From Escherichia phage nataliec: a stretch of DNA of 64,000 nt. The notes under the pieces were generated by a model that did no database searches, was not told the origin of the DNA, and saw only the letters and a program-made list of their open reading frames with translations. The DNA is taken from the sequence record MN850611.1. One strand, given 5' to 3'. This document shows, in pieces, positions 26,006 through 51,068 of the stretch (position 1 is its first letter; every line of letters begins with the position of its first letter). The position numbers and the translations under genes are program-made.

Positions 26006-26082
26006 CTCTGTTTAGCTCAGCTTGGTAGAGCGTTCCGTTTGGGGCGGTAAGGCCGGAGGTTCAAGTCCTCCAACAGAGACCA
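26006..26082 (+). tRNA. tRNA-Pro (anticodon UGG), CCA encoded
   Basis: Hand fold: acceptor ctctgtt/aacagag, D stem gctc/gagc, anticodon loop tTTGGgg, T arm ggagg-ttcaagt-cctcc. Confidence 0.65.
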
Positions 26083-26099
26083 AATTTAAAGGGGTTACT

Positions 26100-26456
26100 A
26101 TGAGATTTTTAAAAGAATGTCCAGTTCATGGTTTAACTGAACATAGCATTCATAAGAATGGTAACGCCGGTAATAGAGTAAATTGTCTAAAATGTTGTGC
26201 ATTAAGGACAAAACTTAGAGAGAATGCCAATAGAGAGAAAGCATATAAGCTTTATGGCGATAGCTGCAAAATTTGTGGCTATAATAAATGTAAAAATGCT
26301 TTAGAATGGCATCACCTTAACCCAAACGAAAAAGAGAATACACCATCAAAACTTATGGGTGCATCTTGGGAAAAGGTTAAAAAAGAACTTGATAAATGTG
26401 TTTTGCTATGTGCTAATTGCCACAGAGAGGTTCATAGCGGAATTACAATGATTTAA
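26100..26456 (+). CDS. HNH homing endonuclease
   Basis: Motifs WHHLNP and CANCHREVH; ORF track start 26022 overlaps tRNA-Pro, so ATG at 26100 (RBS aaagggg) is preferred. Confidence 0.7.
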   Translation: MRFLKECPVHGLTEHSIHKNGNAGNRVNCLKCCALRTKLRENANREKAYKLYGDSCKICGYNKCKNALEWHHLNPNEKENTPSKLMGASWEKVKKELDKCVLLCANCHREVHSGITMI

Positions 26457-26457
26457 T

Positions 26458-26532
26458 GTCGTAGAAGGCAAATGGTTAGCCACCTGACCTTCAATCAGTT
26501 GCTCGCAGGTTCGAATCCTGTCTACGACACCA
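26458..26532 (+). tRNA. tRNA, anticodon ambiguous (loop cCTTCAa, possibly UUC/Glu with C33)
   Basis: Acceptor gtcgtag/ctacgac, T arm gcagg-ttcgaat-cctgt, CCA encoded; anticodon stem has a mismatch. Confidence 0.5.
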
Positions 26533-26538
26533 GTTTTG

Positions 26539-26612
26539 ACAGAAGACCAATTACAGCAAACTTAATCTTATTCATCTGAAGGTAAATCGGACAAAGAAGA
26601 TATTTGGTCTGG
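26539..26612 (+). ncRNA. helix-bracketed structured element 1
   Basis: 5' CAGAAGACCAA pairs with 3' TTGGTCTGG, enclosing about 55 nt; sits between two tRNA genes. Confidence 0.35.
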
Positions 26613-26623
26613 TCATTAAGAAT

Positions 26624-26700
26624 TGCGGGTATAGAGAAAGGGCGTCTCACATGTCTCATTAGCATGGTATCGGCAGGTTCGACTCCTGCACCCGCCTCCA
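26624..26700 (+). tRNA. tRNA-Met or Ile2 (anticodon CAU)
   Basis: Acceptor (t)gcgggt/acccgc(c), anticodon arm catgt-ctCATta-gcatg, T arm gcagg-ttcgact-cctgc, CCA encoded. Confidence 0.6.
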
Positions 26701-26706
26701 AATTTA

Positions 26707-26770
26707 CAGAAGACCGTTTACAGCAATATTTATTAAATTTTTAGCGGAAAAATTGAAAGATACGGTCTGG
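26707..26770 (+). ncRNA. helix-bracketed structured element 2
   Basis: 5' AGAAGACCGTTT pairs with 3' ACGGTCTGG; internal hairpin AATTTTT-agcgg-AAAAATT. Confidence 0.35.
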
Positions 26771-26783
26771 TAATACTAAACAT

Positions 26784-26860
26784 GGTTAGGAAGCACATAA
26801 GGTATGTGCGGTCGCCTGTTAAGCGAATGGCACAGGGTTCGAATCCCTGACTAACCGCCA
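26784..26860 (+). tRNA. tRNA-Asn (anticodon GUU)
   Basis: Acceptor ggttagg/actaacc, D stem gcac/gtgc, loop ctGTTaa, T arm caggg-ttcgaat-ccctg, CCA encoded. Confidence 0.7.
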
Positions 26861-26929
26861 AATTTAGGAGAGAAGCGATTGCTCACCGATTTGTAAGGTG
26901 CAAGTCCTTAGCCTGAATAGAAATTAAAT

Positions 26930-27017
26930 GTGTCGTTATCCCGTAGATGGTAGCGGTGGGGACTGTAAATCCCTTGTCATTGAGACTCGGTAGGTTCGAC
27001 TCCTACACGGCACACCA
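26930..27017 (+). tRNA. tRNA-Tyr (anticodon GUA), class II
   Basis: 88 nt; acceptor gtgtcgt/acggcac, anticodon arm gggga-ctGTAaa-tccct, long variable arm, T arm gtagg-ttcgact-cctac. Confidence 0.7.
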
Positions 27018-27022
27018 ATAAA

Positions 27023-27100
27023 GGTTATGTAGTTTAATTTGGTTAAAATACTCCCCTGTCACGGGAGATGATGAGGGTTCAAATCCCTTCATAACCGCCA
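27023..27100 (+). tRNA. tRNA-Asp (anticodon GUC)
   Basis: Acceptor ggttatg/cataacc, anticodon arm ctccc-ctGTCac-gggag, T arm gaggg-ttcaaat-ccctt. Confidence 0.75.
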
Positions 27101-27161
27101 ATTTTGAGAGGGCTATTTAGCCCCTCCCTTAAAGAGTTCTTACGAGTATTCTTTAAAGGAG

Positions 27162-40523: not shown

Positions 40524-41876
40524 ATGTGGAATCCAATTGTTAATGTAGATATTACATTGAACACCGCAGGAACTACAAGAGAAGGTTTTGGTTTGCCACT
40601 ATTCTTAGCTTCAACAGATAACTTTGAAGAAAGAGTGCGTGGTTATACTTCCTTAACTGAAGTTGCTGAAGATTTCGATGAGAATACTGCTGCATATAAG
40701 GCTGCTAAACAACTTTGGAGTCAGACTCCTAAAGTAACTCAGCTTTATATTGGTAGACGCGCTATGCAGTACACTGTATCAATTCCTGATGCCGTTACCG
40801 AAAGTACAGACTACTCAATTACTGTAGCTGTTGGTGGTGGAATTTCTCAACCATACCAGTACACAGCACAAGATTCAGACACTGCTGAGGTAGTGTTGCA
40901 ACAGTTTAAAACACAGATTGAAGCTGACCCAACAATCAAAGATAAGGTTTCTGTGAATGTAACTGGTAGCAATGGCTCTGCCACAATGATTATTACCAAA
41001 GCTGGTGATAATGACTTTGTGAAAGTAACAACCACAGCACAGACTGTATATATTGCAAGTACAACTGCTGATACAGCAGCAACTGCTCTGGCAGCTATCG
41101 AAGCTTACTCTACTGACTGGTATTTCATTGCAGCAGAAGACAGAACTCAACAGTTTGTCTTAGCAATGGCTTCTGAGATTCAGGCTCGTAAGAAAATCTT
41201 CTTTACAGCTAACTCCGATGTAACAGCCCTGCAAGGTACAGAATTAGCCAGTGCAAATGATGTTCCAGCACAGCTTGCTAAGAATATGTACACTCGTACA
41301 GTTTGCTTGTGGCATCACGCAGCAGCAGAAGATTACCCAGAGATGGCATACATTGCTTATGGTGCTCCATATGATGCAGGTTCAATTGCTTGGGGTAATG
41401 CTCAACTAACTGGTGTAGCAGCTTCTCTACAACCATCTAATCAGAGACCTCTGACAAGTATTCAGAAGTCTGCTTTAGATGTACGTCACTGTAACTTTAT
41501 TGACCTTGATGGTGGTGTTCCAGTGGTTCGTAGAGGGATTACTTCTGGTGGGGAATGGATTGATATCGTCCGTGGTGTTGACTGGTTGGAATCAGACCTG
41601 AAAACTTCTCTGAGAGACTTGCTAATTAACCAGAAGGGTGGTAAGATTACTTATGATGATACTGGTATTACCCGTATTCGTCAAGTCATTGAAACCTCTC
41701 TGCAAAGAGCAGTCAACAGAAACTTCCTGTCATCTTACACAGTTAATGTTCCTAAAGCCTCTCAAGTTGCTTTAGCAGACAAGAAAGCTCGTATCCTGAA
41801 AGATGTTACCTTCGCAGGTATCTTAGCAGGGGCTATCTTGGATGTTGACTTGAAAGGTACAGTGGCTTACGAATAA
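40524..41876 (+). CDS. tail sheath protein
   Basis: 450 aa, immediately upstream of the small tube gene and chaperone/tape-measure set. Confidence 0.55.
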   Translation: MWNPIVNVDITLNTAGTTREGFGLPLFLASTDNFEERVRGYTSLTEVAEDFDENTAAYKAAKQLWSQTPKVTQLYIGRRAMQYTVSIPDAVTESTDYSITVAVGGGISQPYQYTAQDSDTAEVVLQQFKTQIEADPTIKDKVSVNVTGSNGSATMIITKAGDNDFVKVTTTAQTVYIASTTADTAATALAAIEAYSTDWYFIAAEDRTQQFVLAMASEIQARKKIFFTANSDVTALQGTELASANDVPAQLAKNMYTRTVCLWHHAAAEDYPEMAYIAYGAPYDAGSIAWGNAQLTGVAASLQPSNQRPLTSIQKSALDVRHCNFIDLDGGVPVVRRGITSGGEWIDIVRGVDWLESDLKTSLRDLLINQKGGKITYDDTGITRIRQVIETSLQRAVNRNFLSSYTVNVPKASQVALADKKARILKDVTFAGILAGAILDVDLKGTVAYE

Positions 41877-41891
41877 TAGAGGTAAATTGGA

Positions 41892-42338
41892 ATGGCTATG
41901 TATCAGCAATATTCCCCTAAAGACGTTGTATGTAGCTGGAACGGCATTGCTATTGAAGGCTTTGCTCCAGACTCATTCTTGCGTCTACAGAGAACATCAC
42001 CACTTGTGACACCAGTTGTTGGTGCAGGTGGTCAAGTGGCTCTGACAAGAAATGCAGACAAGACAGGTACTATTGAGATTGAGTTAATGCAGACTTCTCT
42101 CTCTAACCAGATGCTTTCTGCAATTCAAGCTAAACAAGACAATATGGAACTTGAAGAAGATATCTCTTCTAACTTCGTAATCTACGACCCATCAGGCTCT
42201 GTTCTGGCAACTGGTATTAACGCTTGGTTGCAGGAGTTACCACAGATTGAACTTGGTCGTGACCAGAACTCTAAAACTTGGATTTTTGGTTGTGAGAAGT
42301 TAGACTACACTTCTACAATTCCAGCGTCAAGTGTTTAA
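41892..42338 (+). CDS. tail tube protein
   Basis: 148 aa after the sheath, followed by a strong terminator. Confidence 0.55.
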   Translation: MAMYQQYSPKDVVCSWNGIAIEGFAPDSFLRLQRTSPLVTPVVGAGGQVALTRNADKTGTIEIELMQTSLSNQMLSAIQAKQDNMELEEDISSNFVIYDPSGSVLATGINAWLQELPQIELGRDQNSKTWIFGCEKLDYTSTIPASSV

Positions 42339-42350
42339 TAAATCCTATAA

Positions 42351-42383
42351 GGGGGAGACTTTAAAAGGTCTTCCCCTTTTTTG
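42351..42383 (+). terminator. rho-independent terminator after the tail tube gene
   Basis: Hairpin gggggagac-tttaaaag-gtcttcccc followed by TTTTTT. Confidence 0.7.
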
Positions 42384-42411
42384 TTTCTTTTAAAAGTATT
42401 AAGGAATCACA

Positions 42412-42810
42412 ATGAAAACAGAATCTAGAGTAATTAATGGTAAGAAAGTAAATATCGTTCTGCTTGGGGCAAGAGATGGTATTAAGATGTCTATGAAGTT
42501 GGGTAAAATTGTTGTTCCAACCTTTGCACAGATGCTATCAAGTCTGACTGACAAGGGTAAGAAGGAAGCTCCAATGGTTCCATTTAAAGAGCTTGTTGAA
42601 GCTTGTTTTGACAGAATTGAAGAAATTAACCTTGAAGAGATGGCTACCTTATTATTTCAAGGGGCAACTGTTGATGACTTCCCACTTAATATTGATACGT
42701 ACTTCCAAGCAAACTACGGTGAGTTTATTGATTACTTAGCATTTGCGCTGGAGGCAAACTTCGGAAGTTTTTTCGAAGCAAGCATTTTCAAAAGCCTAAC
42801 TTCTCAGTAA
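42412..42810 (+). CDS. tail assembly chaperone
   Basis: 132 aa between tube and tape measure; slippery heptamer T TTT TTC at 42768-42774. Confidence 0.5.
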   Translation: MKTESRVINGKKVNIVLLGARDGIKMSMKLGKIVVPTFAQMLSSLTDKGKKEAPMVPFKELVEACFDRIEEINLEEMATLLFQGATVDDFPLNIDTYFQANYGEFIDYLAFALEANFGSFFEASIFKSLTSQ

Positions 42811-43051
42811 ACATGGGTAACACTCTACAGACACCACTAACTGATGCTGCTGTAGAGGCAACCTATGAAGAGGCAGACGAGATGAAATTTGTGCTTGCTA
42901 TTTATGGTATGGAAGGGTGTAAAGAAACACTTGACCAACTCTTTGCTATGACATTCTCTGATTTATTATCATTGAGACAATTTCTTGAAATTCAGAGGTC
43001 GTATAAAGAGGAAATTGCTTACAACGAACTTAGAAGAGCAGGAAAAATGTA

Positions 43052-43052
<1 letters not shown>
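42732..43052 (+). CDS. frameshift extension of the tail assembly chaperone (-1 frame)
   Basis: The -1 frame is open from 42732 and overlaps the 3' end of the chaperone gene; annotated ATG at 42813; the classic two-ORF arrangement before a tape measure. Confidence 0.4.

Positions 43053-51068
<8,016 letters not shown>

Follow-up and report, generated by a model that had tools for sequence, protein, structure and literature searches.

A predicted -1 ribosomal frameshift joining two tail assembly chaperone reading frames in a Felix O1-like Escherichia phage

Two small open reading frames that lie immediately upstream of the tape measure gene of Escherichia phage nataliec can represent either two independently translated genes or the two parts of a single tail assembly chaperone that is extended by a -1 ribosomal frameshift. 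We investigated this question in a 64,000-nt stretch of sequence record MN850611.1, which is referred to below as the window. An original prediction made from the letters of the window had placed a programmed -1 frameshift site in the first of these reading frames, giving the chaperone/extension arrangement that precedes a tape measure gene. That proposal is supported by the protein families involved, by synteny, by conservation of the site, by the lack of suitable start codons in several relatives, and by the annotation of the orthologous locus in the genus Mooglevirus. On these comparative grounds, we estimate a probability of about 90% that a functional -1 ribosomal frameshift takes place at positions 42768-42774, within the tail assembly chaperone gene.

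The source genome belongs to Felixounavirus and represents a Felix O1-like phage with a contractile tail. The stretch from 41800 to 43400 shares 98-99% identity with dozens of Felixounavirus phages of Escherichia and Salmonella, and the 132-aa and 79-aa proteins encoded by the two small reading frames are identical to Felix O1 proteins AAQ14792.1 and AAQ14793.1. The locus comprises the following features:

40524-41876: tail sheath gene (PHROG 205)
41892..42338, + strand: gene for a virion structural protein, presumed tail tube, 148 aa (PHROG 280, Pfam KPP10_Orf10)
42349..42388, + strand: intrinsic terminator between the tube and chaperone genes, a 13-bp stem with 6 GC pairs followed by TTTTGTTTCT
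42412..42810, + strand: gene G, the 0-frame tail assembly chaperone, 132 aa, from ATG to the TAA at 42808-42810
42813..42815, + strand: ATG at which annotators begin a separate 79-aa ORF; it follows the stop codon of G by 2 nt
43052..45280, + strand: tape measure protein gene, 742 aa (Pfam TMP_3, E 2.2e-17; full-length match to PHROG 4036)

The G reading frame matched Pfam family PF21822 (Phage_TAC_15) with an E value of 1.7e-19 and a score of 71 bits (cut-off 22), as well as PHROG 1613, annotated as tail assembly chaperone (E 2.9e-48), and PHROG 3840, and its start is preceded by an AAGGA Shine-Dalgarno sequence. The residues encoded from 42813 onward matched PHROG 4963, also annotated as tail assembly chaperone (E 2.8e-55). 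The product of 41892..42338 is presumed to be the tail tube from synteny, as its gene directly follows the sheath gene. A terminator is annotated at the corresponding place in phage Mordin and others, and the order sheath, tube-like protein, G, T and tape measure, where T denotes the second chaperone reading frame, is identical in annotated relatives. The G/T pair thus occupies the classic G/GT chaperone position between the tube and tape measure genes.

We analyzed the reading frames around the end of gene G, and the features below define the candidate site and its predicted product:

42768..42774, + strand: slippery heptamer T TTT TTC (U UUU UUC in the mRNA), in phase with gene G
42774..43052, + strand: T segment, which extends G in the -1 frame by 92 codons; it starts with CGA at 42774 and ends at the TAA at 43050-43052
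42412..43052, + strand: predicted GT fusion, 213 aa, with residues 1-121 from frame 0 (42412-42774) followed by 92 residues from frame -1 (42774-43049)

The codons of G around the site read ...GGA AGT TTT TTC GAA..., such that T (42768), TTT (42769-42771) and TTC (42772-42774) form a canonical X XXY YYZ heptamer. The last stop codon upstream in the -1 frame is found at 42729-42731, and the frame is open from 42732 until the TAA at 43050-43052, whose last base begins the ATG of the tape measure gene (TAATG). This open -1 frame overlaps the last 26 codons of G, and the part of it that would be translated after the slip overlaps the last 12. The +1 frame is closed, with just 6 codons open around the stop codon. 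Both the observed heptamer, at the coordinates and in the frame originally given for it, and the overlapping open -1 frame from 42732 through 43052 were confirmed by this analysis.

T TTT TTC is the sole in-phase X XXY YYZ heptamer in the overlap. We assessed how often such a motif would be expected by chance by counting in-phase X XXY YYZ heptamers in all window ORFs of at least 100 aa, and found 65 in 17,668 codons, or 0.0037 per codon. A single heptamer is by itself weak evidence and not significant, because about 0.1 heptamers would be expected by chance in the 26-codon overlap. Among the 65 heptamers, however, only the T TTT TTC at 42768 precedes a long open -1 frame, with 92 codons versus 38 for the next best.

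The original prediction had proposed a comparison with related phages, and this comparison was carried out using annotated GenBank records together with 47 loci from uncultivated viral contigs, which were retrieved first with a protein query and then with an alignment query. The octamer TTTTTTCG, which consists of the heptamer and the following G, was found at the homologous position in 56 of 56 loci. These loci reduce to 14 non-redundant lineages comprising Felixounavirus, Mooglevirus and relatives, Kolesnikvirus (phiEa21-4), a Yersinia phage and several metagenomic clades, with protein identities to the window as low as 26-31% and GC contents ranging from 40 to 64%. The heptamer is kept also in the relatives with 57-64% GC. 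In all 14 lineages it is in phase and within an open -1 frame, which runs on for another 83-103 codons. It is retained even where the 0-frame gene runs 45 codons past the site, giving a quite different overlap geometry. In tblastn searches with the distant metagenomic chaperones L044 and L038, the best matches among GenBank phages were in Ounavirinae, at approximately 30-39% identity for matches spanning most of the query. Some GC-rich relatives have an extra A AAT TTC 12 nt upstream of the site.

The amino acids Ser-Phe-Phe at the site are themselves invariant. As the following 20 nt are coding in both frames as well, part of the nucleotide conservation is due to protein constraints. This applies to the stretch GAAGCAAGCATTTTCAAAA, the near-invariant 20 nt after the heptamer in Ounavirinae, the conservation of which is adequately explained by the two coding frames (EASIFK in frame 0 and RSKHFQKP in frame -1). 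We examined synonymous positions as well. In a codon alignment, synonymous-codon identity was 0.47 gene-wide and reached 0.81-0.89 where 9-codon windows covered the site. Among the sequence pairs, 78 of 78 have TTT at Phe120 and TTC at Phe121, while the other invariant Phe columns used as controls, Phe98 and Phe111, scored 0.54 and 0.46. If the amino acids are taken as given and codons are drawn according to local usage, NNT TTT TTC would be retained with a probability of 0.016-0.16 per lineage, and the product of the per-lineage values is approximately 1e-15.6 over the 14 lineages, or approximately 2e-8 if only seven deep clades are counted. Consistent with this, in a blastn search of distant genomes with a 641-nt query, only query positions 346-386 (42757-42797 of the window) aligned with Erwinia phages, at 92.7% identity. 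The first codon of the -1 frame (CGA, Arg, 42774) is invariant as CGN in all lineages, and the -1 frame peptide is conserved across genera, with a motif C-K/R-E-S/T-L...L...M-x-F-x-D...L that aligns across the AT-rich clades. Altogether, these comparisons indicate that the site and its two-frame layout are conserved beyond what the protein sequences require.

The ATG at 42813, from which the second reading frame could be translated on its own, was considered next to the other starts of the region. The 22 nt upstream of it (aaagcctaacttctcagtaaac) contain no purine-rich or Shine-Dalgarno motif, unlike the 8 of 8 neighboring gene starts checked, which all have a Shine-Dalgarno sequence. This ATG is not conserved outside Felixounavirus and close relatives. 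We located the first ATG, GTG or TTG after the heptamer in the -1 frame of more distant relatives and found it at codon 56 in phiEa21-4, codon 38 in L035, codon 36 in L038, and codon 63 in both L044 and L048; each of these codons is within the conserved T domain or past it. In phiEa21-4, L035, L038/L040, L044 and L048 there is no start codon before the conserved T domain, so that its conserved residues are reachable only by ribosomes coming from the first ORF. Independent initiation at 42813 had been named as an outcome that could account for all of the downstream product. As an additional route in Felixounavirus it is possible, since this ATG follows the stop codon of G by just 2 nt; the relatives that have no start codon show that independent initiation cannot be the conserved, ancestral or general mechanism.

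These observations bear directly on the simplest alternative, in which the locus consists of two independent genes, the 79-aa ORF is expressed from ATG 42813 by termination-reinitiation, no fusion is made, and the heptamer is nothing but codons for Ser-Phe-Phe. Such an arrangement agrees with current annotation, as four of four sampled Felixounavirus GenBank records list separate CDSs and in the window's protein cluster, the 40 members that were read have lengths of either 132 or 79 aa. It would also fit the position of the ATG 2 nt after the TAA, the presence of an ATG within a few codons in Mooglevirus-like relatives, and the invariance of SFF in the protein. However, the missing Shine-Dalgarno sequence before 42813 and the absence of a start codon before the T domain in phiEa21-4, L035, L038/L040 and the GC-rich relatives argue against it. 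Furthermore, protein conservation leaves unexplained why a T-ending codon followed by TTT and TTC is fixed when other invariant Phe codons vary, and this fixation holds in genomes of 57-64% GC too. We consider two independent genes without a fusion very unlikely. The reinitiation route is, in any case, compatible with frameshifting and may add a free T product in Felixounavirus.

One could also suppose that the heptamer arose by chance and that the -1 ORF is non-functional or otherwise expressed. The chance expectation given above and the failure to find a stimulatory structure (see below) are in line with this, but the invariance of the heptamer in all loci and lineages, the peak of synonymous conservation centered on it, and the conservation of the T-segment protein in the -1 frame make such a coincidence hardly credible. 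The remaining alternative concerns the level at which slippage occurs. If RNA polymerase added a U on the T6 run (42768-42773), G and T would be placed in one frame, and mass spectrometry could not tell the product, ...SFF-RSK..., from that of a ribosomal slip. The homopolymer run makes this conceivable. Known bacterial slippage sites consist of runs of about 8-9 or more A or T, however, and here the run is exactly six T in 14 of 14 lineages, never longer. T6 runs are not special in this genome, as the window contains 16 T6 and 37 A6 runs. In addition, the run is always phased as X XXY YYZ and the next C is fixed; phasing is needed for a ribosomal slip and not for a polymerase slip. Transcriptional slippage therefore appears extremely unlikely, and a ribosomal -1 frameshift is the reading that we pursue below.

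In an attempt to identify elements that might stimulate such a frameshift, we folded 60, 100 and 121 nt around or after the site into pseudoknot-free structures. The downstream stimulatory structure suggested as a check did not emerge, in that neither folding nor a consensus fold revealed a stable or conserved structure within reach of the ribosome. The 60 nt after the heptamer give a fold of only -3.4 kcal/mol, less stable than those of shuffled controls (z +1.17), and the consensus fold of seven Ounavirinae sequences reached -1.56 kcal/mol with no meaningful covariation. A scan of 42300-43200 against Rfam gave only sub-threshold chance matches on the real terminator. Three candidate structures were rejected. 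An 8-bp hairpin at approximately 42823-42857 (z -2.07 in the 100-nt fold) starts approximately 48 nt downstream and is not conserved in sequence; a small hairpin in which the slippery run takes part (CUUCGGAA/UUUCGAAG) lacks conservation in phiEa21-4; and a terminator-like arrangement at 42748-42764 followed by the T run has a 6-pair stem with two G-T pairs, of a type for which 2 matches were found versus a shuffle expectation of 1.7. In GC-rich distant relatives, hairpins occur close to the site that are not clearly better than shuffled controls.

Upstream of the heptamer, one candidate element was found:

42750..42754, + strand: internal Shine-Dalgarno-like GGAGG, candidate upstream stimulator, 13 nt upstream of the heptamer

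GAGG is present at exactly 13 nt in 11 of 14 lineages, seven of which have GGAGG; it is missing from L004, L005 and L035, which keep the heptamer. Sharma et al. looked for stimulatory Shine-Dalgarno-like sequences at distances of 6-17 nt before the motif, and the GGAGG at 42750-42754, falling within this range, may contribute to frameshifting in the same way.

The level of frameshifting to be expected may be gauged from data on E. coli. U_UU.C is the second most shift-prone tetramer in this organism, and all-pyrimidine heptamers are favored. For UUUUUUC, frameshifting was 0.121% when no stimulator was present, 0.893% when those of IS911 were, and 7.58% with the IS3 pseudoknot (PMC4066793), which indicates that efficiency depends strongly on context. 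As the bare heptamer reaches only 0.12%, versus a background of approximately 0.055%, efficiency at the phage site may be very low. We would expect a shift frequency between a fraction of a percent and a few percent, and a low shift frequency is what the G:GT chaperone ratio requires.

Taken together, the data are compatible with the following course of events. Most ribosomes would read 42412-42810 in frame and stop at the TAA at 42808, giving the 132-aa G protein. In a minority, tRNA-Phe(GAA) on UUU (42769-42771) in the P site and tRNA-Phe on UUC (42772-42774) in the A site would both slip back by one base and re-pair with UUU UUU (42768-42773), and CGA at 42774 would be the next codon for the shifted ribosomes, which would stay in the -1 frame as far as 43050 and make the 213-aa GT protein. 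By analogy with lambda, G and the G part of GT would coat the tape measure protein while the T part would recruit the tube protein; the G:GT ratio would be determined by the low frequency of the shift, and the virion would be expected to contain neither protein. The phage has a tRNA cluster at 26006-31350, and its own tRNAs include a tRNA-Phe(GAA) that reads the slippery codons and a tRNA-Arg(ACG) that reads the first codon of the -1 frame.

A more elaborate scenario would combine these elements, so that a structure-independent frameshift driven by the invariant U6-C-G octamer and the GAGG at 13 nt sets the G:GT ratio, with possible tuning of the level of the shift by the phage tRNAs in Felix O1-like phages and possibly some free T. 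The octamer is indeed the same in genomes of 40% to 64% GC and in relatives whose protein identity is as low as 26%. Nevertheless, we regard the combination as a whole as unlikely. If it were true, free T made by termination-reinitiation at ATG 42813 would bring the number of products to three rather than two.

The predicted fusion has a mass of approximately 24 kDa, with the junction ...EANFGSFF-RSKHFQKPNFSVNMGNTLQ..., and the junction peptide is predicted to span FF-RSKHFQKPNFSVN. Peptides that cross the start region of the 79-aa ORF are also predicted for GT, namely HFQKPNFSVNMGNTLQTPLTDAAVEATYEEADEMK after tryptic digestion and ANFGSFFRSKHFQKPNFSVNMGNTLQTPLTDAAVE after digestion with Glu-C. 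The residues before Met in these two peptides are encoded 5′ of ATG 42813 and could thus come only from -1 frame translation that began upstream. A collection of about 15 billion proteins has no entry for the 213-aa fusion. A PDB sequence search with the fusion protein found no relative, and AlphaFold2 run on it without an alignment gave a mean pLDDT of 32.6, too low for the model to be used.

Frameshifting of this kind is an ordinary, textbook feature of tailed phages, a means to set the ratio of two chaperones, and it has already been described in the sister genus Mooglevirus, while it is unannotated in the Felixounavirus records sampled. Its confirmation would add little in this respect. 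The main value of the present analysis is for annotation, as Felix O1 and every close relative inspected list two small genes and the fusion is missing from protein databases. Some residual interest lies in the fact that eight bases have stayed the same among relatives that are very distant and differ greatly in base composition. In addition, as the site has no recognizable downstream stimulator, it could serve as a clean test of a bare U UUU UUC with an upstream Shine-Dalgarno-like sequence in vivo.

The closest known system is that of Mooglevirus (Citrobacter phages Moogle, Michonne, Mordin and Mijalis), also a genus of Ounavirinae, in which the orthologous pair has a G protein of approximately 75% identity (approximately 80% at the nucleotide level). 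The heptamer T TTT TTC is identical and is formed by the same codons (…EANFGSFF), synteny is the same, and the downstream sequence GAGGCAAGCATTTTCAAAAGCC is nearly identical, with one base differing from the window. The genome papers of Moogle, Michonne and Mijalis report a tape measure chaperone made via a -1 translational frameshift, citing Xu et al. 2004. A joined CDS is annotated for the site in Mordin, Michonne and Moogle, and in the Mordin record it runs over both ORFs. When we rebuilt the Mordin/Michonne fusion by a slip on T TTT TTC, we obtained exactly the deposited 212-aa proteins AKU44019.1 / YP_009177317.1, which indicates that the annotators used this site. Mooglevirus is nevertheless a separate genus, and the sampled Felixounavirus records (n=4) list two genes. 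Mordin also differs in having a 0-frame tail that is 3 codons longer and a -1 frame ATG displaced by 5 codons. The frameshift is a prediction in both genera; in the literature on Ounavirinae phages we found reports of predictions and no experimental demonstration.

The arrangement also resembles the G/GT system of lambda, in which two overlapping ORFs lie between the major tail protein and tape measure genes (Levin et al. 1993; Xu, Hendrix and Duda 2004, 2013, 2014), the second ORF is in the -1 frame, the heptamer is near the end of the first ORF, and the shift occurs at a low level. The lambda G:GT ratio is about 30:1 and is crucial for assembly, and neither G nor GT is found in the mature virion (review PMC5009743). 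Mass spectrometry of virions would therefore be the wrong test for the fusion in our phage, and an infected-cell lysate would be needed. The two systems differ in that lambda is a siphovirus, whereas the window phage has a contractile tail with a sheath gene and its G protein belongs to Pfam family Phage_TAC_15. They differ as well in the slippery sequence, which is G GGA AAG in lambda and U UUU UUC in the window. The lambda site is not known to need a strong RNA structure, and the window, where no downstream structure was found, is like lambda in this regard.

Among contractile-tailed phages, P2 provides a likeness in the slippery sequence, as its E chaperone is reportedly extended to E+E' by a -1 frameshift on a U-rich heptamer, T TTT TTG, in the gene that precedes the tape measure gene. 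By this account, the two phages would share a -1 slip on a U-rich heptamer that extends a chaperone, and would differ in the last base of the heptamer and in the organization of the tail cluster. No homology to P2 E chaperones was detectable in the searches that we ran.

The dnaX tau/gamma and IS911-type sites share with the window the combination of a heptamer and an upstream Shine-Dalgarno-like sequence (GGAGG at 13 nt in the window). They have in addition a downstream hairpin or pseudoknot, whereas none was detectable in the window, and their outcome is a shorter product or a transposase fusion rather than an extended chaperone. Judged by what characterizes dnaX- and IS-type sites, the locus thus has the upstream Shine-Dalgarno-like sequence and lacks a stable downstream hairpin or pseudoknot. 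The locus was also compared with the features by which conserved G/GT frameshifts are recognized (Xu, Hendrix and Duda 2004). The downstream ORF is without initiation signals of its own, with reinitiation 2 nt after the stop codon being possible in the window, and the position of the pair, the -1 overlap, the in-phase heptamer, its conservation and the chaperone family are all as in that class of sites.

Expression of the chaperone locus may be set by transcription as well as by the proposed frameshift at the slippery heptamer T TTT TTC (42768-42774), which would join the 0-frame tail assembly chaperone gene (G, 42412-42810, +) to its -1 frame extension (T, 42774-43052). A terminator lies upstream of G:

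42349-42388, intrinsic terminator, located between the tube and chaperone genes; 13-bp stem with 6 GC pairs, then TTTTGTTTCT

This is a strong terminator, and one is annotated at the equivalent position in other phages, Mordin among them. The chaperone and tape measure genes would be transcribed less than the sheath and tube genes as a result which, if the terminator acts in this way, would constitute a second layer of stoichiometry control.

With respect to decoding at the slip site, the phage encodes tRNAs of its own:

26006-31350, cluster of 24 tRNA genes
29338-29413, tRNA-Arg(ACG), within the cluster
30350-30425, tRNA-Phe(GAA), within the cluster

Both codons of the heptamer can be read by the phage tRNA-Phe(GAA), and CGA, the first codon in the -1 frame, would be decoded by the phage tRNA-Arg(ACG). 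No tRNA-Glu for GAA, the 0-frame codon that follows the heptamer, was found among the 24 tRNAs of the cluster.

A candidate stimulatory structure was considered downstream of the heptamer:

42823-42857, 8-bp hairpin, CUCUACAG...CUGUAGAG, within the coding sequence of T, about 48 nt past the heptamer

This hairpin accounts for the z of -2.07 of the 100-nt fold, and we rejected it as a stimulator, as it is too far downstream for a ribosome positioned at the heptamer. Mooglevirus-like relatives carry a different stem, CCCC(R)...GGGG, at the matching codons, and neither folding nor comparison with relatives gave the hairpin an evident function.

GC-rich uncultivated relatives of the chaperone (L044-L053; IMG/VR contigs, GC 57-64%) have the same TTTTTTC, and in these the 0-frame gene continues for 33-45 codons beyond it. 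GC-rich hairpins begin 3-4 nt past the heptamer (e.g., -32 kcal/mol in L044), although they were not clearly better than shuffled controls. In some of these loci A AAT TTC, 12 nt upstream of TTTTTTC, forms an additional in-phase heptamer. Their best GenBank matches among cultured phages are Ounavirinae, at ~30% identity.

Labels for features of the chaperone locus diverge among sources (LR597663.1, LR699048.1, OK040807.1, and protein cluster 2). Some Felixounavirus records place "head closure protein" or "tail completion protein" on features under the chaperone-locus match and, for Salmonella phage SUT_S820, at least one source has such a name on the 79-aa ORF itself. These labels look like mis-transferred annotation of ORFs that belong to the tail assembly chaperone.

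At the distal end of the locus, the T stop codon shares bases with the tape measure ATG (TAATG, 43050-43054), and AGGA is located 8 nt upstream of that ATG. With this overlap, tape measure translation is placed to be coupled to T-frame ribosomes and not to ribosomes that end at G. The same overlap is present in Mordin, whereas in phiEa21-4 the end of T and the tape measure start are separated by a 3-nt gap.
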